Positions 1 to 18,403 of a DNA stretch of 25,764 bases are shown here, piece after piece. The notes beneath the pieces are model-generated. The model did not search any database. It was not told the DNA's origin and saw only the letters and a list, made by a program, of their open reading frames with translations. Source of the DNA: Promethearchaeota archaeon (lineage in GTDB: Archaea; Asgardarchaeota; Hermodarchaeia; Hermodarchaeales; Hermodarchaeaceae). Each line of letters starts with the position of its first letter. The stretch's first letter is position 1. Location: contig JBHLPR010000030.1 of NCBI GenBank assembly GCA_048939245.1, positions 1 through 25,764 on the forward strand, written 5' to 3'. Made by a program: the position numbers and the translations under genes.

Positions 1-1071
1 GTTCACCTCTATAATCGGTCCCAATCACGCATCAATCCCATCATCAGTCAAGGTGGAATCCGAGTTGATGGTGTCCTCGAAGGATTCGCGCCACTCTCGT
101 CCTGCTCTTCGAATATGGGTGAAATATTAGCTAAAGCTGAGTTTGTTTTCTTTGTTGTTCCTGCGTCAGCGCATCGAGATCTCGCAAGACTTTGCGCAAG
201 TTATTTGAATCCGAATCAGGTGCTTGTTCTTCTTCCTGGACGAACCGGTGGTGCCCTTGAGGTATCGAATATCCTCGAGAGTATCCTCGGTTGGTATCCA
301 CCAATTGCTGAGGCACAGACCTTTCCTTTGGTGAGTCGGGTCGAATCTTCTGGTCATGCTAAAATTACGGCAATCAAGAACGAATTACCAATTGCCACCT
401 TCCCAGCAAAGTATACAGAAGAATATTGTTCGTTGTTATCTACTATCCTCCCAGGGGTTGTATCTGCGGAGGATGTTCTCAATACTAGTCTAGCGAATAT
501 TGGCTGTATTTTTCATCCTGCACCCTTGTTGTTGAATCTTGGTCGAGCGGAGTCAACTCAGGGTAATTATAATCATTACCTTGATGGTGTGACCCCTACT
601 GTAGCAAAGTTTCTTGAACGAATTGATGAAGAACGTGTTTCTGTAGGTAACGCCCTTGGAAAGAAGCTCTGCTCAGCTGCTGATTGGTTACGGCAAGTGT
701 ATAATTCACATGGTAAGAATTTGTATGAGTGTCTGCAATCCACCTATTGTTATCAGGAGTTGGGGGCTCCATTCTCACTAAATCACCGTTACGTGTTTGA
801 AGATGTGCCTACTGGGTTGGTCCCAATTGCTGCAATTGGTGAACAGATCGGTGTCCCAACTCCGACAATTCGAACAATAATTGATCTCGCTTCACACTTA
901 ACTGGCATCGACTATTGGCGAACTGGCCGAAATGCGGACTATCTCGGAATTACTGAGCTTTCGACTATGGAGCTTCTTTTCTATGTCCAGGAGGGTTCTC
1001 TGGATGTTCTTAGTAGTCATGCTGTTGTCGAAGGTCATCTTGATGATTGGGATGAGGTGGGGTTAGAATGA
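1..1071 (+). CDS. NAD/NADP-dependent opine (octopine/nopaline) dehydrogenase family protein, 5'-truncated by the window
   Basis: Frame 1 is open from base 1 (VHLYNRSQSRINPIISQGGIRVDG, the second Rossmann strand). It carries the family motifs VVPASAH, LLPGRTGGALE, IAEAQT, NIGCIFHP, DEERVSVG and HRYVFEDVPTGLVP. Confidence 0.9.
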   Translation, partial: VHLYNRSQSRINPIISQGGIRVDGVLEGFAPLSSCSSNMGEILAKAEFVFFVVPASAHRDLARLCASYLNPNQVLVLLPGRTGGALEVSNILESILGWYPPIAEAQTFPLVSRVESSGHAKITAIKNELPIATFPAKYTEEYCSLLSTILPGVVSAEDVLNTSLANIGCIFHPAPLLLNLGRAESTQGNYNHYLDGVTPTVAKFLERIDEERVSVGNALGKKLCSAADWLRQVYNSHGKNLYECLQSTYCYQELGAPFSLNHRYVFEDVPTGLVPIAAIGEQIGVPTPTIRTIIDLASHLTGIDYWRTGRNADYLGITELSTMELLFYVQEGSLDVLSSHAVVEGHLDDWDEVGLE

Positions 1072-2822
1072 AGTCTTCACAGGGGTCAAAAAAGCAAATG
1101 ATACTTGGTGCTTCTCTAGGCAACTGTGTGCATGTTGCTGGTCCACTTAATTTTCTAGCATTGGCTGAAGCCCGGGGGTATTGTACGGAATTTCTTGGTC
1201 CTGCAACGTCTATCGAGCAGCTTTTACGGCGAATTGTGGAAAAAGATCCAGACATAGTTGGGTTAAGCTATCGTCTCACACCTAAGGTTGGCGTTCAATT
1301 AGTTACTGAACTCAGTCAAAGAGTAAAAGAAGAGAATTTAGAAAAGCGTACTTGGATATTTGGTGGTACTACACCCGTAGTCAACGCGGTTAAGAAGATT
1401 CGTTTCTTTGATGCCTACTTTGATGGTGATAGTACTGATGAAGATGTTCTTACATTCTTAATTGCGAATTGTGACCCAGTGCTTTATTCAAAACAACGGA
1501 AACGGGAACGAGCTCAGCTTTATGCTTCAACGCTTATTGAACGATTGGCACAGCGGAAGCCATGGCCATTAATTCGTCATCATTTTGGTTTACCTGACTT
1601 GGAAGAGACAATTGCCGGGGTCAAACAAATCGCTGAAGCAAAGTGCCTTGATGTTATATCCATTGGTCCCGATCAAAATGCTCAACAATTCTTTTTCCGT
1701 CCTGATGAAATGCAGCTCTCAGTAGAGGGTGCTGGTGGCGTTCCTATTCGAACCAAAAAGGATCTCATTGATTTGTTTGCTGCCTCGCGATATGGAAATT
1801 TCCCGCTTATGCGTTGCTACAGTGGCACTCAAGATTTAAGCAGATGGGCAAAACTCCTTCAAAAGACCATTAACAATGCTTGGTGTGCAACACCAATTAA
1901 TTGGTATAGTGCCCTTGATCGTCGGAGCACACGTCCCATCACCCAGGCAATTCGGGAAAATATGAAAAACATTGCATGGCATGGCAGAAATGGTATTCCG
2001 GTCGAGGTCAATGAACCACACCATTGGAGTCTGCGTCAAGCTCATGATACAATCGCAGTAGCAGCTGCATATTGGTCAGCATTTATTGCAAAATCGCTAG
2101 GCGTAGGCAATTACATTATTCAGATGATGATGAACACTCCCCTTGGGACCTCTCCTTCGATGGATTTAGCGAAAATGTGGGCTTATTTAGGACTCGTAGA
2201 ATCCCTAGAAGATGAAAATTTTAGAACGCACCGTCAGGTTCGAACAGGATTGCTAAGCTTACCAGTAGACCTGGACGCCGCCCGAGGGCAACTCGCCTCA
2301 TCTATGTATACTGCTATGATGCTTAATCCCGACATTGTCCATGTTGTTGGATTCTGTGAAGCAGATCATGCAGCCACATCCCAGGACGTTATTCAAAGTT
2401 GCCGCATTGTTCGGCAAGTGGTCAAAGAATGCCTACTTGGAGTTCCTAATCCTTTATTAGATCCCCTAATTATGAAACGTCGAGATCAATTAGTATCTGA
2501 AGCAACCCTTCTCCTCAAGCTTCTCATGGAACTTCCTGAGGATAAGTCTATTCATCCTTTACTCAATCCTGAAACATATTTCCGTGCATTGAAGTTAGGC
2601 ATATTGGATGCGCCTGATTTAGTTGGTAATCCTAATGCACAAGGGCAGCTCAAAACTCGAATGATCAATGGTGCATGTTATGCCGTGGATGAAAACGGGC
2701 ATATTTTGAAAGAAGAAACACGTCTAGCCAAATGTGTTCCCCACTTGGTAAAGGCTGTTGTATCAAACGGGAAACGAAAACCCAAATTACGGGTAAACAA
2801 TGAACTTGAGGTGAAACTATGA
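1068..2822 (+). CDS. Cobalamin (B12)-binding domain protein fused to a glutamate-mutase-E-like TIM barrel; uncharacterised B12-dependent enzyme
   Basis: The N-terminal Rossmann B12 domain has CVHVAG (DxHxxG-like), GLSYRL (SxL-like) and IFGG. The C-terminal ~430 aa has GIPVEVNEP, AKSLGV, LPVDLDAA and VHVVGFCEA, which parallel GlmE segments. ATGA overlap with the upstream gene; GAGGTG RBS. Confidence 0.8.
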   Translation: MKSSQGSKKQMILGASLGNCVHVAGPLNFLALAEARGYCTEFLGPATSIEQLLRRIVEKDPDIVGLSYRLTPKVGVQLVTELSQRVKEENLEKRTWIFGGTTPVVNAVKKIRFFDAYFDGDSTDEDVLTFLIANCDPVLYSKQRKRERAQLYASTLIERLAQRKPWPLIRHHFGLPDLEETIAGVKQIAEAKCLDVISIGPDQNAQQFFFRPDEMQLSVEGAGGVPIRTKKDLIDLFAASRYGNFPLMRCYSGTQDLSRWAKLLQKTINNAWCATPINWYSALDRRSTRPITQAIRENMKNIAWHGRNGIPVEVNEPHHWSLRQAHDTIAVAAAYWSAFIAKSLGVGNYIIQMMMNTPLGTSPSMDLAKMWAYLGLVESLEDENFRTHRQVRTGLLSLPVDLDAARGQLASSMYTAMMLNPDIVHVVGFCEADHAATSQDVIQSCRIVRQVVKECLLGVPNPLLDPLIMKRRDQLVSEATLLLKLLMELPEDKSIHPLLNPETYFRALKLGILDAPDLVGNPNAQGQLKTRMINGACYAVDENGHILKEETRLAKCVPHLVKAVVSNGKRKPKLRVNNELEVKL

Positions 2823-2962
2823 CTGAAGAACGATGTAGCTGTGGCTTTCCATTAAGTGAAAAGTACAAAAAGTGTATCGTTTGTTTACCTCCTCAATTGA
2901 GAATGACAACTGGGCGGTATAACCATTCAATCATTGAATCAATGTTAAAGGATTCCGGTTAA
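2819..2962 (+). CDS. 47-aa putative zinc-finger microprotein (CxC...CxxC), below the ORF-track cutoff
   Basis: Translates as MTEERCSCGFPLSEKYKKCIVCLPPQLRMTTGRYNHSIIESMLKDSG. The start overlaps the upstream stop (ATGA) and is preceded by GAGGTGA at 2808-2814. Confidence 0.65.
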   Translation: MTEERCSCGFPLSEKYKKCIVCLPPQLRMTTGRYNHSIIESMLKDSG

Positions 2963-11712: not shown

Positions 11713-11868
11713 GCTGGCTCAGCTGTTCCTGTGTGATTATATGAGTTATAAACGTCACGATGATTCTATGGTTTCTATTCCAATTAGAACCTTTGAAATC
11801 AGGTGGGGGGTAACACTAATTAGGTGCACAGAAGTGGTGTCATCTATACTTGTAGGTGTGGTGGAAAG

Positions 11869-13302
11869 GTGAAGCCTCGAAGGATACCTACCCGCTCTAA
11901 AATTGTCTGCACAATTGGACCTGCCTGTGAAAGTAAAGAGATATTATTGCAGATGGCGAAAGCTGGAATGGACGTCCTACGGCTCAATCTCTCCCATGGC
12001 ACAATAGCTGAGCATCAAACCCGTTTTAAGCGTATACGCAAGGTCCTTCCCTATCATCCTATCCTCATGGACCTTGAAGGACCCAGAGTACGGATTGGAG
12101 ATGTAAAAGCCCCAATCGATTTGGCGGAAGGTGACCACATCACCTTAACAACAAAAGATATTGAGGGCGATACCGCACGAGTAAGCATTTCACTAAAAAC
12201 GCTTCCGAAGCTCATTAAAGCCGGTCACAGTATCTTCATCAATGACGGCATTGTTGAACTACGAGTTAACGAAATCCGGGGGTCCGAAATTCACGCCGTC
12301 GTTGTTACTGGAGGTGAAATCAGTAGTAACAAAGGAGTAAACGTTCCTGGTGTGGATCTTGGCATGACCGTCCCCACACCACAAGATATCAGACATCTCA
12401 AGTTTATTGCTGAACTCGGACCAGAATTTGTAGCGGTCTCTGCGGTTAAACACAAAGATGAAGTCGAAAAAGTTCAGGCATTTCTCCGAAATGAAGGGAC
12501 CGATATTCCCGTCATTTCCAAAATTGAACACATAATGGGGATCCAAAATTTCGATGAGATTTTAGAAGCCAGTTATGGAATCATGGTGGCTCGGGGTGAT
12601 CTCGGTGTAGAAATTCCTCCCGAGCAAGTTCCGCTTCTTCAAAAAGAAATAATCCGTAAGTGCAACCAAACCGGAAAACCTGTCATTGTCGCTACCCAAA
12701 TGCTCGAATCCATGGTTCGGAATTCTCGTCCCACTCGGGCTGAAACTAGTGACGTTGCAAATGCCATCTTGGATGGATCTGATGCAGTCATGCTCTCAGC
12801 TGAGACAGCCGTGGGACGTCACCCAGTTGCGGCAGTTCGGGTCATGGAAACAATCGGCAAACAAGTGATTCCGTCCTTTCCCCAGCGAGACTCAACTTAT
12901 TATGATTCGGGACAGCATTTGATTGCTGAAGAACTGGGGCGCTCTGTGGTTTCCATGGCACAAAACCTGAACGTGCAAACCGTTCTCGTTTTTACGATGG
13001 CGGGCTACTCTGCTCGAATGGTTTCGAAATATCGACCGCCTGTCCGTATCATTGCGAGTACACCGCATATTCGAGTACAACGGCAAATGAAGCTCCTCTG
13101 GGGAACTGAGAGTTTACTGATAAAGCATGGTGATAATATGGATGAACTGCTCCAGCTCGCTATTAACCAACTTCATGGCGATGGGGTTGTGAAACCTGAG
13201 GAACGAATTATCGTCGTCCGTGCTTCCGCTTTGGTCCCAGGAAAAACTAACGTACTGGAAGTATTCACTGTCAAAGATGTTCTTGATGCCAAAATTCATT
13301 AG
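11869..13302 (+). CDS. pyk: Pyruvate kinase
   Basis: Motifs KIVCTIGPA, RLNLSHG, KGVNVPG, SKIE, IMVARGDLGVE, ATQMLESM, PTRAETSDVANAILDGSDAVMLSAETA. GTG 11869 is the likely start (ORF track starts at 11824). Confidence 0.97.
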   Translation: MKPRRIPTRSKIVCTIGPACESKEILLQMAKAGMDVLRLNLSHGTIAEHQTRFKRIRKVLPYHPILMDLEGPRVRIGDVKAPIDLAEGDHITLTTKDIEGDTARVSISLKTLPKLIKAGHSIFINDGIVELRVNEIRGSEIHAVVVTGGEISSNKGVNVPGVDLGMTVPTPQDIRHLKFIAELGPEFVAVSAVKHKDEVEKVQAFLRNEGTDIPVISKIEHIMGIQNFDEILEASYGIMVARGDLGVEIPPEQVPLLQKEIIRKCNQTGKPVIVATQMLESMVRNSRPTRAETSDVANAILDGSDAVMLSAETAVGRHPVAAVRVMETIGKQVIPSFPQRDSTYYDSGQHLIAEELGRSVVSMAQNLNVQTVLVFTMAGYSARMVSKYRPPVRIIASTPHIRVQRQMKLLWGTESLLIKHGDNMDELLQLAINQLHGDGVVKPEERIIVVRASALVPGKTNVLEVFTVKDVLDAKIH

Positions 13303-13942: not shown

Positions 13943-14854
13943 TTGACTGAACCTGCAATCGAAGACAAACGCATCACTCTCGAAGAAGTGACCAAAAAAG
14001 TTCCCGACGGTGCCCACATCGCTTGGGGTGGCTTTGGCTACCAACGTCCTCCTGAAGCCTTTGCCATGGAACTCATTCGACAAAAGAAACGCAGTATTCG
14101 TATCTATACTTGTGGATCTGAACATGATTTAGATATCCTTGTTGGCGCTGGGGTCTGTTTGGAATTTGAAGTGGCATTCTTTGCGATTGAAGCGTTGGGT
14201 CTTGCTCCAAATCTTCGTCGTCGGACAAAGGAGGGGAAGGTGAAGTTCGAAGATTATTCGAATCTTGCTATGGCGTTGCGCTTTTTGGGTGGAGCGTTGA
14301 ATGTGCCGTTTATGCCGATTCGCCACATGATTGGCACGAATATGATGGATAAGTTCCGCCTTCGAAAAGATAAAGCGAAAGTCTTAGAGTGTCCTTTCAC
14401 TGGCACACCAATCACTCTACTTCCATCGATTCAAGCAGATTTTGGAGTAATCTGCGCTCAGAGAGCTGATCAAGCAGGTAATGTTCAGATTTTTGGAATA
14501 AAAGGGGAAGACAACGAAATCACTCGCTGTGCCAAGAAGTCCATCGTGTTTGTTGAAGAGATTATTTCAAATGAGGAGATTCGTCAGAATCCCGACCTAA
14601 CCACGATTCCCGGTTTATATGTAGACTATGTGGTTGAACTCCCCTTTGGTAGTTGGCCTATGCAGGTCTATGGGATGTATGACTATGATCTTCCACATTT
14701 GCAATACTATGTTCAACAATGCAAAACTGAGGAAGGCTGGGAAGAATATCTGGACGAATGGATTGTGGGTGTGGAAAATCACCAGGGGTTACTCAAAAGA
14801 ATCGGTAAGAAACGATTGAAGGAATTGCAAGCTGATCCACGCTATGGTTACTAA
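13943..14854 (+). CDS. gctA: Family I CoA-transferase alpha subunit (glutaconate CoA-transferase A-like)
   Basis: Motifs DGAHIAWGGF, ELIRQ, DILVGAG, EDYSN-AMALRF-GGALNVPF, CPFTG, AQRADQAGN and YDYD. GGTGA RBS precedes TTG. Confidence 0.85.
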   Translation: MTEPAIEDKRITLEEVTKKVPDGAHIAWGGFGYQRPPEAFAMELIRQKKRSIRIYTCGSEHDLDILVGAGVCLEFEVAFFAIEALGLAPNLRRRTKEGKVKFEDYSNLAMALRFLGGALNVPFMPIRHMIGTNMMDKFRLRKDKAKVLECPFTGTPITLLPSIQADFGVICAQRADQAGNVQIFGIKGEDNEITRCAKKSIVFVEEIISNEEIRQNPDLTTIPGLYVDYVVELPFGSWPMQVYGMYDYDLPHLQYYVQQCKTEEGWEEYLDEWIVGVENHQGLLKRIGKKRLKELQADPRYGY

Positions 14855-14860
14855 GAGGAC

Positions 14861-15643
14861 GTGATGAAAATGGTAGAATATACAGCAACAGAAATGATGG
14901 CGGTCTGTGGAGCACATGCGGTCCAAGATGGTGAACGCGTATTTGCGGGAACTGGGCTTCCGGTTCTTGGAGCTATGCTTGCCAAGGTTACTCATGCCCC
15001 GAATGCCATTATCATCTATGAAGGGGGCAATGTTGATACGCAAAACAAAGATCTTGCCTTGTCGGTAGCTGATTCACGATTAGGTTATCGGGCTGCTGCA
15101 TCGATTGGTCTCATTGAAACCTTAGGGTTCCTGATGATGGGCGGACGTGTCGATGTGGGCTTTCTTGGTGCAGCCCAAATCGATGAATTTGGCAATATTA
15201 ACACCTCCTATATTGGAGATTTTGAGACTCCTAAAGTTCGGCTACCCGGAAGTGGCGGAGGCAATGACATAGCGAGTTCTGCGGGTCGCATTATTTTGAT
15301 GTTTACCCATGACGCCCGAAAATTTGTGAAAAAACTCGATTACCTCACCAGCCCTGGGCACCTCTCTGGACCTGGAAGTCGCGAAAAACTTGGCTTAATC
15401 GGGGGTGGTCCTGCTTTAGTGGTCACAGATAAATGCCAGATGGACTTTGACTCTAAGACAAAACGAATCCGCTTAAAGTCAGTTCATCCAGGGGTGACCG
15501 TTAACTGGGTGAAAGAAAATGTGATGTTTGACCTCATAGTGCCCAAAGAGGTTCCCACGACGGCTGAGCCAACTGAACAAGAATTAGAAAAACTCCGTGG
15601 CTTGGATCCCCAACGGATCTATCTGGGGAAAGGGCAAAAGTAA
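14861..15643 (+). CDS. gctB: Family I CoA-transferase beta subunit (glutaconate CoA-transferase B-like)
   Basis: Motifs FAGTGLP, IIYEGG (catalytic Glu position), DVGFLGAAQIDEFGNIN, RLPGSGGGNDIAS and TSPG. Starts 6 nt after subunit A. Confidence 0.85.
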   Translation: MMKMVEYTATEMMAVCGAHAVQDGERVFAGTGLPVLGAMLAKVTHAPNAIIIYEGGNVDTQNKDLALSVADSRLGYRAAASIGLIETLGFLMMGGRVDVGFLGAAQIDEFGNINTSYIGDFETPKVRLPGSGGGNDIASSAGRIILMFTHDARKFVKKLDYLTSPGHLSGPGSREKLGLIGGGPALVVTDKCQMDFDSKTKRIRLKSVHPGVTVNWVKENVMFDLIVPKEVPTTAEPTEQELEKLRGLDPQRIYLGKGQK

Positions 15644-16176: not shown

Positions 16177-17085
16177 ATGCTAATTTTAGGAGTCGCTGCT
16201 TCATTAACTGCTGCGGTCGCTTGGGCGATTAGTGCAGCATTTTATAAAACAGGCGCAAAAGAAGTCCCTGCTCTGGCTTCCAATTTGATTCGAATACTTG
16301 CACCTCTTTTTCTCCTCATGATTGGAGCACTAATGCTCAATCTGTATTCGCAAATCTTACTTTTGAGTCCTTGGGAACTTTTGTTGATATTTGGTAGTAG
16401 TATTTTTGCCTTTGTTGTAGGTGACGCGTTGTATTTCGTGACAATTCAAAATATTGGGGTTAGTCGGGGAGTGCCTATTACCGCAACCTATCCTCTCTTC
16501 ACTCTCCTCTTGCAGATCCTATTCCTTGCTCAACCTGTGCATTTTCTCATGGTACCAGCTGCTATCATTACGGTTACTGGGATTGCATTGCTTGGTCGTC
16601 AATTGGATATTTCAGCACAAACTGAAGAGAATATCTCCCGACGACAAATGTGGATCGGTATTTGTGCTGCACTCGCTACAGCATTCGCTTGGAGTATTAG
16701 CATCATCTTTCTTTCAACCGTCTTACAAACAACCAACCTCGTGTTAGTGGCAGTCATTCGACTAACTATCGCTTTGGCTATTCTCTCTCCTCTCGTTTTG
16801 GGGCAACAGCTCATCAAACGGGGATTGCCTCTTACTCGTCGAAAACTAGTCTACTTATCCATTGGAGGAATTTCTGCCTTGACCATCGGTTATGTAGCCT
16901 TTGCCTTCGCCCTGCAAATCATAGATACGACTTCTGTGGCCCTCCTTTCTTCTCTCACTCCACTCTTTGCAGCGATTATCAGTTGGCGAACACTTCAAGA
17001 GAGCTTTGATGTTAAGACCTTGATTGCAATTATCGCCTGTATTATTGGAGTATTTCTCACAACGATTGCTGTTGCTCTCGTATGA
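16177..17085 (+). CDS. EamA/DMT family transporter
   Basis: Two EamA repeats (AAVAWA...GDALYF...IGVSRGVPITATYPLFT; TAFAWS...SSLTPLFA) and ~10 TM segments. Confidence 0.9.
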   Translation: MLILGVAASLTAAVAWAISAAFYKTGAKEVPALASNLIRILAPLFLLMIGALMLNLYSQILLLSPWELLLIFGSSIFAFVVGDALYFVTIQNIGVSRGVPITATYPLFTLLLQILFLAQPVHFLMVPAAIITVTGIALLGRQLDISAQTEENISRRQMWIGICAALATAFAWSISIIFLSTVLQTTNLVLVAVIRLTIALAILSPLVLGQQLIKRGLPLTRRKLVYLSIGGISALTIGYVAFAFALQIIDTTSVALLSSLTPLFAAIISWRTLQESFDVKTLIAIIACIIGVFLTTIAVALV

Positions 17086-17170
17086 GCTTCAACCTTATCA
17101 AAGGGAATGTTTTAAGGTAAACTATCTCCATTCTTCGATACGAAATCTAAACTTCAATGGAGGCGCACCA

Positions 17171-18403
17171 ATGAAATATGAGGACTTTTTCAATCCTAAA
17201 TACAAACCCCACGACACTGATACTATCTGTACATTTCGTATTCAAACCCGTGATCCCCAACGAAGCATGCGATGGGCAGCAGGAGGGGTTGCTGCTGAGA
17301 GTTCGATTGGAACCTGGACGGAATTAACCACTGAGAAGCCGTATATGAAAAAATTAGCTGCCACCGTCTTTGAACTAAAGGACAATATTGCCCGTATTGC
17401 TTATCCTTTTGGATTATTTGAACCCGGTAACATGCCCAACATCATGAGTTCTGTTGCTGGAAACGTGTTTGGTCTTGGAGATATTCAATATCTGCGATTA
17501 CTGGATATTCACTTTCCCAAAGAATTAGTGAAAAGTTTTCCAGGACCTGCTTTTGGTATTCCTGGTATCCGTAAAACCGTCATGGTGGATAAGCGTCCTC
17601 TGATCGGAACTATCGTGAAGCCCAAATTAGGATTGAAAACCAAAGATCATGCTTCAGTCGCATATGCTGCCTGGGCAGGAGGGTGTGATGTTGTGAAGGA
17701 TGATGAGAATCTCTCGAGTCAGGCTTTCAATCCCTTCGAAGATCGGGTCGTTACGACCCTTGAGCAGCGTGATCGAGCAGAAGCGGAAACAGGGGATAAG
17801 AAGGTTTACTTGATAAACGTCACGGCAGAAACTCAAGAGATGTTACGCCGCGCTCAATTTGTCGAAGATCATGGAGGACGGGTTGCCATGATTGACATCT
17901 TAACCTGTGGTTATGCCGCAGTAGCTACACTCCGCAATCAAGGGTTTAAATTAATTCTCCATGGGCACCGAGCCATGCATGCCGCATTTACCAAATTGCC
18001 CTATCACGGTATCGCGATGCCTGTTATCGCAGTTGTATCCAGATTATTAGGAATTGACCAACTGCACGTGGGAACCGCTGTGGGGAAAATGTCGGAGGAT
18101 CGAGAAGAAGTCCAAACAAATATTCAACAATGCACCCAACCATTATACGGTCAAAAACCCACCATGCCTGTGGCTTCTGGGGGGCTCCATCCGGGACATA
18201 TCCCTGCATTGATTGATATTTTTGGCAAAGATGTAATAATCCAAGCAGGCGGTGGTATTCACGGACATCCCAAGGGAACTAAAGCTGGGGCAACAGCAAT
18301 GCGGCAGGCGGTTGATGCAGTACTTTCTGGCCAGTCTCTCAAAGATTATGCCGCCTCTCATCCTGAATTGGCTGAAGCCTTGAAGCGGTGGTCAAGCGCA
18401 TAG
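17171..18403 (+). CDS. rbcL: Ribulose-1,5-bisphosphate carboxylase large subunit, archaeal Form III
   Basis: Motifs AAESSIGTW, AGNVFG, IVKPKLG, GGCDVVKDDE (carbamylated Lys), HGHRAMH, LHVGTAVGKM, VASGGLH and QAGGGIHGHP. ATG 17171 follows GGAGG, and no small subunit is present. Confidence 0.96.
   Translation: MKYEDFFNPKYKPHDTDTICTFRIQTRDPQRSMRWAAGGVAAESSIGTWTELTTEKPYMKKLAATVFELKDNIARIAYPFGLFEPGNMPNIMSSVAGNVFGLGDIQYLRLLDIHFPKELVKSFPGPAFGIPGIRKTVMVDKRPLIGTIVKPKLGLKTKDHASVAYAAWAGGCDVVKDDENLSSQAFNPFEDRVVTTLEQRDRAEAETGDKKVYLINVTAETQEMLRRAQFVEDHGGRVAMIDILTCGYAAVATLRNQGFKLILHGHRAMHAAFTKLPYHGIAMPVIAVVSRLLGIDQLHVGTAVGKMSEDREEVQTNIQQCTQPLYGQKPTMPVASGGLHPGHIPALIDIFGKDVIIQAGGGIHGHPKGTKAGATAMRQAVDAVLSGQSLKDYAASHPELAEALKRWSSA

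Follow-up and report, generated by a model that had tools for sequence, protein, structure and literature searches.

Introduction

To our knowledge, only about a dozen reactions of adenosylcobalamin (AdoCbl) isomerases are known, and every His-on B12 enzyme studied so far has an Asp–His pair beneath the cobalt. In 2009 Zhang, Rodionov, Gelfand and Gladyshev predicted a new B12-dependent family whose genes lie beside octopine dehydrogenase (PMC2667541); in the available passages of that paper the family comprises 11 bacteria from four phyla and no archaea, with D-Ala:D-Ala ligase and asparagine synthase nearby in some genomes. Opine dehydrogenases from hot springs (mODHs), about 40% identical to the Arthrobacter enzyme ArODH, accept L-Asp or L-Glu together with pyruvate in vitro, and mutagenesis established that an Arg/Gly pair sets their preference for L-Asp (Telek et al. 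2024, PMC10787698). In the literature covered, which leaves aside the two founding papers on the ydaO/c-di-AMP riboswitch, we found no characterisation of a CxHxxG motif or of an opine dehydrogenase linked to B12 or ydaO.

Here we describe an archaeal member of such a gene pair. The window is the whole stretch of DNA analysed, 25,764 nucleotides of contig JBHLPR010000030.1 from a Promethearchaeota archaeon, and its relevant features are as follows.

1..1071, + strand: opine dehydrogenase partner gene (PF02317), its 5′ end cut by the contig end
1068..2822, + strand: single-chain B12 enzyme of 584 aa, with a GlmS-like B12-binding domain and a GlmE-like barrel
1101..1484, + strand: B12-binding Rossmann domain, aa 12–139 (PF02310, alignment to 4jgi_A, SxxL, GG)
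1119..1142, + strand: G-N-C-V-H-V-A-G, residues 18–25, a CxHxxG variant of the DxHxxG cobalt-ligand motif
1512..2720, + strand: GlmE-like TIM barrel and C-terminal helical part, aa 149–551 (VIA-align, Foldseek, hhalign)
2358..2360, + strand: codon of Glu431, aligned with GlmE Glu330 (hhalign column)
2819..2962, + strand: 47-aa CxC...CxxC microprotein, ATGA-coupled to the B12 gene

Fold of the B12 enzyme

On translation the reading frame at 1068–2822 is open throughout. The only Pfam match of the 584-aa protein is PF02310 (B12-binding), which covers residues 12–109 (E 5.6e-8) and at 33.1 bits is barely above its cut-off of 32.1. Alignment to solved B12 domains with HMMER places S67..L70 on the SxL motif and G99-G100 on the GG motif; the features of a His-on B12 domain are present (H22, G25, the SxL-type and GG motifs, and the Rossmann fold). 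Inspection of the motif finds no Asp two residues before His22 (codon 1131–1133). The position is held instead by Cys20 (codon TGT, 1125–1127), which aligns with the Asp of DxHxxG in 1xrs_B (T-D-A-H-T-V-G) and 4jgi_A (G-D-L-H-D-I-G). In the AF2 model of the protein (pLDDT 91.3), residues 1–139 superimpose on the corrinoid protein 4jgi_A with a Z score of 16.1 and an rmsd of 2.1 Å over 124 residues.

The top structural matches of the model are all AdoCbl isomerases. For the barrel, VIA-align gives GlmE (1cb7_B) as the best match (Z 32.7, rmsd 2.9 Å over 370 residues), followed by lysine 5,6-aminomutase (Z about 30), ornithine aminomutase (about 28) and methylmalonyl-CoA mutase (about 22); pterin-binding barrels of the DHPS type reach only about 16. 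Foldseek also finds the GlmE barrel (E 4e-15), and hhalign against four true GlmE sequences returns a probability of 91.8% and an E value of 7e-7 over 360 columns. Searches of the PDB by sequence only (phmmer and a 44-sequence profile) reached B12 domains and not GlmE, so the relationship was established by fold search and hhalign. The names given to the protein in the ESM Atlas are generic only. An earlier note on this DNA, made from the letters alone, had proposed a natural GlmS–GlmE-like fusion with Cys replacing Asp in the cobalamin motif, and had matched three segments of the barrel to GlmE (GIPVEVNEP, LSLPVDLDAA and VHVVGFCEA). The two domains do lie in one chain, the C-terminal domain fits onto the barrels of B12 mutases, the substitution is as described, and all three segments are recovered by hhalign. 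The barrel is best explained by descent from the GlmE/aminomutase lineage, with the substrate pocket rebuilt.

The family is large, comprising more than 7,700 protein clusters and occurring in at least 584 species-representative genomes. It spans Asgard and other archaea, Bacillota, Chloroflexota, Thermotogota and others, the gene pair being widespread in anaerobes. Both the distant N-terminal B12-binding domain and the adjacent octopine/nopaline dehydrogenase (PF02317) of the family predicted in 2009, as the available passages describe it, are found in the window, and the adjacency recurs in 73 of 80 loci. The same note had also argued for a distinct class of B12 radical enzyme. A new class is not borne out, because the family falls inside the GlmE/aminomutase barrel lineage and, by the description in those passages, had already been predicted (PMC2667541).

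Cysteine in place of aspartate

Cysteine is present at the motif in about 115 of the top 120 homologues and in 56 of the 58 rows of the Cys-clade alignment, and among 80 species-representative genomes about 75 have Cys and four have Asp. The overall conservation is thus about 94–97%, and the residue is conserved among homologues, as the earlier note required. The position of the His ligand is invariant in all rows of all three clades. Two sister clades that match the Cys clade in architecture and partner gene retain the canonical DxHxxG. Cys and Asp are the sole residues seen at this site; they have interchanged at least four times on the tree, each time requiring two base changes. Asp revertants occur even within the Cys clade (loci L075 and L076), which have close Cys-bearing sisters (L022 and L030) and the same operon. 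As Asp and Cys have swapped so often and nothing else is found in their place, Cys most likely takes over the part of Asp in pairing with the His that ligates the cobalt. The earlier note had proposed an altered tuning of the axial ligand; the architecture and partner gene shared by the Asp sister clades, and the Asp revertants, argue instead for equivalent roles of Cys and Asp. His22 would be the likely lower cobalt ligand, and Cys20 would replace the canonical Asp as its hydrogen-bond (or ion-pair) partner.

Selenocysteine was considered for the Cys site and rejected: TGT or TGC codons are used in 74 genomes, and the single TGA within a relative's match lies upstream of that relative's start codon. 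We note that the Cys clade has further cysteines of its own (positions 250, 445, 537, 430 and 273), none of which occurs in the Asp clades; C250, C445 and C537 are unaccounted for by our best explanation.

The substrate pocket

The hhalign alignment pairs GlmE residues D89, D96, P126, D154 and E330 with D195, D202, P226, D256 and E431. Glu330 of GlmE is the residue that we take to bind the adenosyl ribose, and in the three clades position 431 is Glu in 57/58, 27/28 and 6/6 rows. The substrate-binding residues of GlmE are different here. Segments RHHFG, DQNAQ and RCYSGT occupy the positions of the substrate arginines R66, R100 and R149, which align to H172, Q206 and Y251, and GlmE E171 aligns to C273; within the family these replacements are conserved in the clade alignment. 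A substrate other than glutamate, which the earlier note had suggested from these segments, is supported because the arginine claw of GlmE has been replaced. Across the superfamily there is little or no variation at R170, R249, R286, R392 and K369 (R249 is Lys in most rows of the DPH clade), a pattern that fits a polycarboxylate. K369, which is invariant, has no counterpart in GlmE.

The Pfam family of GlmE, PF06368 (Met_asp_mut_E), has no match at E ≤ 1 in the 584-aa protein and none in the genome; relatives reach this profile at just 22–27 bits against a cut-off of 26.6. Profile searches of the genome, which is 88% complete, gave no match to GlmL or to methylaspartase (MAAL_C), unlike true GlmE loci, where the order is GlmL–GlmE–methylaspartase. 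The enzyme is not a glutamate mutase. Some CxH-type relatives are fused to the GlmL/MutL accessory protein (P0155, P0156 and P0273–P0276). From the fold, the conserved ribose-binding Glu and these fusions, radical AdoCbl chemistry is predicted. The genome encodes a CobA-type adenosyltransferase and two large subunits of the methylmalonyl-CoA mutase type.

The opine dehydrogenase and the gene neighbourhood

The stop codon of the opine dehydrogenase gene overlaps the start of the B12 gene in an ATGA at 1068–1071. The partner matches Octopine_DH (PF02317) with an E value of 9.7e-46, and a full-length orthologue in locus L003 aligns with Arthrobacter CENDH/ArODH (1BG6) over its full length (E 4e-68). 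In the window the partner contains P-G-R-T-G-G and N-I-G-C-I-F-H-P, which place Arg at ArODH position 111, Gly at position 198 and the catalytic His at 202. Neighbourhoods were compared by ORF clustering of related loci, 80 from the Cys clade and 80 from the sister clades. Of these, 73 and 67, respectively, have an opine dehydrogenase gene immediately upstream. Arg is found at position 111 in every aligned full-length partner (73 from the Cys clade, 61 from the DAH sister clade), and Gly at position 198 in 73/73 and 60/61. In no case was the opine dehydrogenase found fused to the B12 enzyme; the proteins of at least 1023 aa in the search were GlmL fusions only.

Among the Bacillota, 15 of 21 loci have a c-di-AMP (ydaO) riboswitch, RF00379, scoring 96–118 bits, directly upstream of the cassette, as do one Armatimonadota locus and one sister-clade locus; these data come from bacteria, the archaeal contig beginning inside the partner gene and so lacking the upstream region. 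Across phyla, enzymes that form amides turn up repeatedly in the operon: AsnB is there in 10 of the 160 loci, 8 loci have a Ddl-like ATP-grasp gene in the same orientation, and P0135 is an ATP-grasp fusion. Neighbours of the Ddl-like, Lgt, SDR and 2-oxoacid:ferredoxin oxidoreductase types are lineage-restricted, some of them divergent, and were excluded from the core set. The 47-aa microprotein is a lineage-specific accessory: tblastn finds it behind no cassettes other than those of L002, L003 and L005, the three closest Asgard ones.

Proposed function and alternatives

We favour, with moderate confidence, an AdoCbl isomerase that acts on an acidic opine, is coupled to its partner and is tied to osmotic or potassium stress. 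The protein would be a single-chain base-off/His-on cobalamin enzyme of the AdoCbl isomerase type, forming a two-enzyme unit with the translationally coupled dehydrogenase. The latter most likely joins L-aspartate or L-glutamate to pyruvate, giving an N-(1-carboxyethyl) amino acid, and the B12 enzyme most likely isomerises this polyanionic opine or a close relative. The mODHs handle L-Asp poorly (kcat about 1 per second, KM 0.5–25 mM; PMC10787698), so that Asp and pyruvate may not be the true substrates. In Bacillota c-di-AMP would shut off the cassette. Such control would link the product to osmotic, potassium or envelope homeostasis; it is possibly a compatible solute or a precursor of one.

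A more elaborate version, which we consider quite unlikely, makes the cassette a complete two-enzyme cycle with pyruvate as a recyclable handle. The dehydrogenase would tie L-glutamate (or L-aspartate) to pyruvate, the Cys–His cobalamin enzyme would carry out a radical 1,2-shift on the N-(1-carboxyethyl) amino acid, and the same dehydrogenase would free the rearranged product, for example β-glutamate (a β-amino acid) or an N-(2-carboxyethyl) compound. The product would act as a compatible solute and in some cases be amidated by AsnB or ATP-grasp enzymes, and the thiolate–imidazole pair would be a new means of tuning the cobalt–carbon bond.

The closest matches of the barrel would at first sight suggest a true glutamate (methylaspartate) mutase with fused S and E subunits, interconverting L-glutamate and 3-methylaspartate: GlmE is the top structural and profile match, and some family members have weak PF06368 matches. 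The loss of R66, R100, R149 and E171, the missing PF06368, GlmL and methylaspartase matches and the invariant opine dehydrogenase in place of methylaspartase make this very improbable. An aminomutase of the lysine 5,6- or ornithine 4,5-type, using PLP with AdoCbl, could instead shift the amino group of an acidic amino acid, the opine-type dehydrogenase then oxidising or reducing the product. In fermentation pathways the step after a known aminomutase is catalysed by an NAD(P) dehydrogenase. The PLP-assisted amino shift is kept in play because the aminomutase barrels (Z 28–30, the lysine enzyme at 30) come close behind GlmE at 32.7; the best PDB and NCBIfam sequence matches of the N-terminal domain are aminomutase beta subunits, and Lys369 is without an equivalent in GlmE. 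We nevertheless think it unlikely. The NCBIfam scores of the 584-aa protein are far below their cut-offs (Lys_5_6_beta 17.7 bits against 280, OraE 12.7 against 800), the alignment holds no conserved Lys within aa 1–140, the Rossmann domain being the site of the PLP lysine in known aminomutases, and GlmE is still the top scorer and the hhalign match.

It is highly unlikely that the protein is a methyl-corrinoid protein or methyltransferase cycling between Co(I) and methyl-Co(III), with the Cys tuning the redox potential or acting as thiol acceptor. The N-terminal domain does resemble corrinoid proteins (4jgi_A, MtgC, MtbC) and ‘methionine synthase’ is among the source names of homologues. However, the barrel of the second domain is of the B12-isomerase type (Z 32.7 against about 16 for the DHPS type), the substrate and reactivation domains of MetH were not found by Pfam, relatives carry GlmL, the accessory protein of the mutase, as a fusion, and the ‘methionine synthase’ names derive solely from similarity in the B12 domain. 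These public annotations are wrong and unfit for metabolic reconstructions of Asgard archaea. Finally, the Cys might act as a switch that responds to redox state or metals, or as another ligand of the cobalt through a Co–S bond, possibly together with the other clade cysteines. In solved B12 domains the aligned Asp faces away from the cobalt, which argues against this. So do the invariant His22, the Asp revertants L075/L076, which have close Cys sisters and the same operon, and the architecture and partner gene shared with the Asp clades. In its favour, the Cys is highly conserved, the additional cysteines are missing from the Asp clades, and Co–S coordination of cobalamin is known in the chaperone MMADHC, according to the available text of bioRxiv 10.1101/2023.07.25.550549. 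On balance such a role for the Cys is doubtful.

The preferred reading, an opine isomerase, concerns a large family with a near-constant dehydrogenase partner and a second-messenger riboswitch. The question can now be tested, since in vitro substrates of the partner are published (L-Asp or L-Glu with pyruvate), the natural Cys/Asp swaps are ready-made controls, and cultivable hosts exist in Thermoanaerobacter, Caldanaerobacter and Thermoanaerobacterium. The answer would add a new B12 reaction and may add a new stress metabolite and the first Cys–His lower-ligand pair to be described.

Comparison with known systems

The closest characterised relative is glutamate mutase GlmS/GlmE with GlmL (Clostridium cochlearium; 1cb7, 6h9e). 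It shares the B12 Rossmann domain, the TIM-barrel fold and the order of segments, and some relatives of the present enzyme are fused to GlmL. The sequences are only about 15% identical, under the PF06368 threshold; the present enzyme is one chain with the B12 domain N-terminal, whereas glutamate mutase has two subunits, and it has CxHxxG rather than DxHxxG and opine dehydrogenase rather than methylaspartase as the partner gene. The aminomutases KamDE and OraSE have the AdoCbl barrel and Rossmann domain in common with it (Z 28–30), and OraE of ornithine aminomutase is likewise a natural single-chain fusion of the two, but their domain order is reversed and their PLP lysine is not evident in the Rossmann domain here. 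With MetH the likeness is confined to the B12 domain, to which the PDB matches are limited; Pfam finds neither the homocysteine- and pterin-binding barrels nor the AdoMet reactivation domain.

Compared with mODH-45, -47, -48, -49, -55 and -582 and with ArODH/CENDH (1BG6), the partner shares Arg-111, Gly-198 and the catalytic His202. Its orthology with the mODHs rests on the Arg/Gly signature. The mODH paper (PMC10787698) reports neither genomic context nor physiological role. The pair as a whole corresponds to the family of Zhang et al. (PMC2667541), which is the same by description in the available passages, the comparison being with that description. The GlmE-type barrel, the Cys substitution, the DxH sister clades, the riboswitch and the partner signature are not named in those passages and are described here.

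The cysteine of the cobalamin motif

The gene for P0001, a 584-residue B12 protein, shares an ATGA (1068-1071) with the gene upstream, whose stop codon overlaps the P0001 start. The features concerned are:

1-1071: opine dehydrogenase ORF, upstream of the P0001 gene and cut by the contig end (PF02317, E 9.7e-46)
1068-2822 (+): P0001, open frame of 584 aa
1119-1142 (+): G-N-C-V-H-V-A-G, P0001 residues 18-25; the Cys20 codon is TGT

The sole Pfam match of P0001 is the B12-binding domain PF02310 (aa 12-109, E 5.6e-8). When P0001 is aligned to solved B12 domains, Cys20 falls on the Asp of DxHxxG and the other fingerprint positions are occupied by His22, Gly25, S67..L70 and G99-G100. The replacement of Asp by Cys that the earlier note had read in this motif is thus real and correctly placed. 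It is also conserved in homologues: C-[VI]-H is found in about 115 of the 120 closest cluster representatives (D-V-H in 2), and among 80 species loci about 75 carry Cys and 4 Asp, the latter in two species of Thermoanaerobacterium and in single MAGs of Thermoanaerobacterales and Cloacimonadota. Two more distant clades (D-A-H and D-P-H), located by searching representatives at 50% identity exhaustively, share the two-domain architecture, at about 610-636 aa, and have a canonical D-A-H-T-[LM]-G or N-D-P-H-T-x-G motif. A maximum-likelihood tree was built from 93 proteins. All 28 rows of the D-A-H clade in it have Asp; in the D-P-H clade the count is 5 Asp to 1 Cys, and in the large clade containing P0001 (the Cys clade) it is 56 Cys to 2 Asp, with loss of the motif in one further member, the only other state on the tree. 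At least four Asp/Cys changes are needed, with two base substitutions (GAY to TGY) for each change from Asp to Cys. His22 is invariant in the aligned rows of all three clades. Judged from these sequences, the site may have to hold a side chain that, as a carboxylate or thiolate anion, accepts the hydrogen bond of the His. Read in this way, Cys would be a functional replacement of Asp rather than an indication of different chemistry.

Five additional cysteines do not fit neatly with Cys as a substitute for Asp. They are specific to the Cys clade and are not found at these positions in the Asp clades: residue 250 (46/58 members; P0001 codon 1815-1817), 273 (31/58; 1884-1886), 430 (37/58; 2355-2357), 445 (49/58; 2400-2402) and 537 (47/58; 2676-2678). 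C273 aligns with Glu171 of GlmE and C430 adjoins Glu431.

The opine dehydrogenase partner

In 73 of 80 Cys-clade loci the gene directly upstream of the B12 gene, in the same orientation, encodes an opine dehydrogenase homologue; several of the exceptions are contigs that end just upstream of the B12 gene. The pairing is also observed in 67 of 80 D-A-H-clade loci from metagenomes, 65 of them adjacent. No other gene is conserved in either set of loci. The conserved unit is thus a two-gene cassette that predates the Asp/Cys split.

Over its entire length, a full-length orthologue of the partner aligns with Arthrobacter N-(1-D-carboxyethyl)-L-norvaline dehydrogenase (1BG6) at E 4e-68. Telek et al. 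2024 (PMC10787698) describe six opine dehydrogenases from hot-spring metagenomes, about 40% identical to the Arthrobacter enzyme; their preferred substrates are L-aspartate, L-glutamate and cysteate, together with pyruvate, and the cofactor is mostly NADPH. Reciprocal double mutants identified Arg at ArODH 111 and Gly at 198 as setting that preference (PMC10787698). In our alignment, the Arg, the Gly and the catalytic His are present in all 73 Cys-clade partners and in 61, 60 and 60, respectively, of 61 Asp-clade partners; the motifs of the enzyme in the window are P-G-R-T-G-G and N-I-G-C-I-F-H-P. In the barrel of the B12 enzyme, all clades keep R170, R249 (replaced by Lys in most D-P-H rows), R286, R392 and K369. 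A polycarboxylate would suit this set, for example a dicarboxylic amino acid with an N-(1-carboxyethyl) group. The product of the opine dehydrogenase would be the substrate of the B12 enzyme; the two could also act in the reverse order, B12 enzyme first.

Regulation and neighbouring genes

A survey with Rfam (RF00379 gathering score 38) found full-length c-di-AMP riboswitches (96-118 bits) directly upstream of the opine dehydrogenase gene in 8/10 and 7/11 Bacillota loci. RF00379 also precedes AsnB-opine dehydrogenase-B12 in one Armatimonadota locus and opine dehydrogenase-AsnB-B12 in one D-A-H-clade locus; it was found in none of ten loci from other phyla. Riboswitches of this class switch genes off on binding c-di-AMP, and their targets are genes for potassium uptake, osmoprotectants and the cell wall. 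In one Bacillota MAG a fluoride riboswitch (RF01734, 50 bits; L049:4694-4755, +) takes its place directly upstream of the cassette. Of 160 loci, 10 have an asparagine synthase B-type amidotransferase gene within the operon; they span at least five phyla and include one from Thorarchaeota. Genes of this type inside or adjoining a riboswitch-controlled cassette, in distant phyla, are:

L022:7753-9213 (above the NCBIfam AsnB equivalog cut-off)
L030:7724-9226
L028:598-2079
L138:4459-5946

Another 8 of the 160 counts concern Ddl-like ATP-grasp ligases, encoded nearby on the strand of the cassette. Taken together, the riboswitch and these neighbours suggest a small acidic metabolite, sometimes amidated or ligated, that is wanted at low c-di-AMP and is possibly a compatible solute; the riboswitch evidence is bacterial.

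Downstream of P0001 lies a further coupled gene:

2819-2962 (+): 47-aa CxC...CxxC four-cysteine microprotein, ATGA-coupled to the B12 gene

Apart from the three closest Asgard cassettes (L002, L003, L005), no cassette of a relative was found to be followed by it. We note that some D-A-H-clade loci have a 136-149 aa zinc-ribbon protein in its place. A RuBisCO large-subunit homologue (17024-18403, +), a CoA-transferase subunit pair (13943-15643, +) and a pyruvate kinase (11824-13302, +) in the window seem unrelated to the cassette.

Distribution and naming

A word-indexed search gave at least 7,771 significant proteins among 8,000 candidates scored, from Asgard archaea (Thor-, Hod-, Hermod- and Promethearchaeota), Methanofastidiosia, Halanaerobiales, Anoxybacter and others. 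Scanning one genome per species, at least 584 species have a relative. Among the matches listed, cultivated carriers are Thermoanaerobacter, Caldanaerobacter, Thermoanaerobacterium, Tepidanaerobacter, Fervidicola and Maledivibacter, and further groups are Chloroflexota, Thermotogota, Armatimonadota, Gemmatimonadota, Ignavibacteriota and Aminicenantes. Relatives are present in 15 of 40 genomes related to that of the window, 12 of 18 within the same family and patchily elsewhere in the phylum.

Public names are generic ('cobalamin B12-binding domain-containing protein') or wrong; 'methionine synthase', as well as 'methylmalonyl-CoA mutase cobalamin-binding subunit', is a misleading label based solely on the B12 domain. 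Our literature search found no paper characterising the family or mentioning CxHxxG. By its description, the B12-dependent family predicted in 2009 (PMC2667541) is the same one. With its Cys motif, its Asp sister clades, a partner that bears an acidic-opine signature and control by c-di-AMP, the family makes a well-posed experimental target.

Comparison with glutamate mutase and other B12 enzymes

An AlphaFold2 model of P0001, built on a 44-sequence family alignment, is confident (mean pLDDT 91.3, pTM 0.85). Foldseek against the PDB ranked Clostridium cochlearium GlmE at the top (6h9e_B, E 4e-15; 1cb7_B, E 9e-15).

Table. VIA-align comparison of the predicted P0001 model
GlmE 1cb7_B: Z 32.7, rmsd 2.9 A over 370 residues (model 149-551)
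Lysine 5,6-aminomutase alpha: Z 28-30
Ornithine 4,5-aminomutase: Z about 28
Methylmalonyl-CoA mutases: Z about 21-22
ThiC, IspG and DHPS-type barrels: Z 16-18

The family alignment was also compared by hhalign with an alignment of four true GlmE genes from Clostridia genomes, whose loci have the expected GlmL-GlmE-methylaspartase order. P0001 155-537 matched GlmE 61-439 (probability 91.8%, E 7e-7, 360 columns), and all three segment correspondences given in the earlier note were reproduced. The note's proposal of a GlmE-like second domain was right. It also proposed a distinct enzyme class, but P0001 is not a new class: it belongs to the B12-isomerase barrel lineage and, as far as the 2009 description goes, is already in print as a predicted family.

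Adenosylcobalamin may be the cofactor of P0001, to judge from Glu431, from fusions in relatives and from the adenosyltransferase of the genome. Fusions to the mutase accessory protein GlmL/MutL (PF13941) occur among several relatives, CxH-type included (P0155, P0156, P0151, P0273-P0276), and NCBIfam GlmL models match them below their cut-offs. Other natural fusions are to an ATP-grasp domain (P0135) and an M15 peptidase-like domain (P0139). In the window's genome a CobA-type adenosyltransferase gene adjoins methylmalonyl-CoA-mutase-type genes; PduO-type adenosyltransferase and CobS were not found there.

We reject P0001 as a glutamate mutase. P0001 has no PF06368 match, and PF06368, GlmL (PF13941) and methylaspartase (PF07476) gave no match in the genome, which at 88% completeness does not prove absence. 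The residues with which GlmE grips glutamate are changed in the hhalign alignment: R66 to H172, R100 to Q206, R149 to Y251 and E171 to C273. Instead, P0001 stands as a distinct and widespread orphan within the B12-isomerase barrel lineage and naturally carries Cys in place of Asp. It has a framework in common with GlmE, namely D89 = D195, D96 = D202, P126 = P226, D154 = D256 and E330 = E431; the last of these, conserved across all three clades, corresponds to the GlmE residue that binds the adenosyl ribose.
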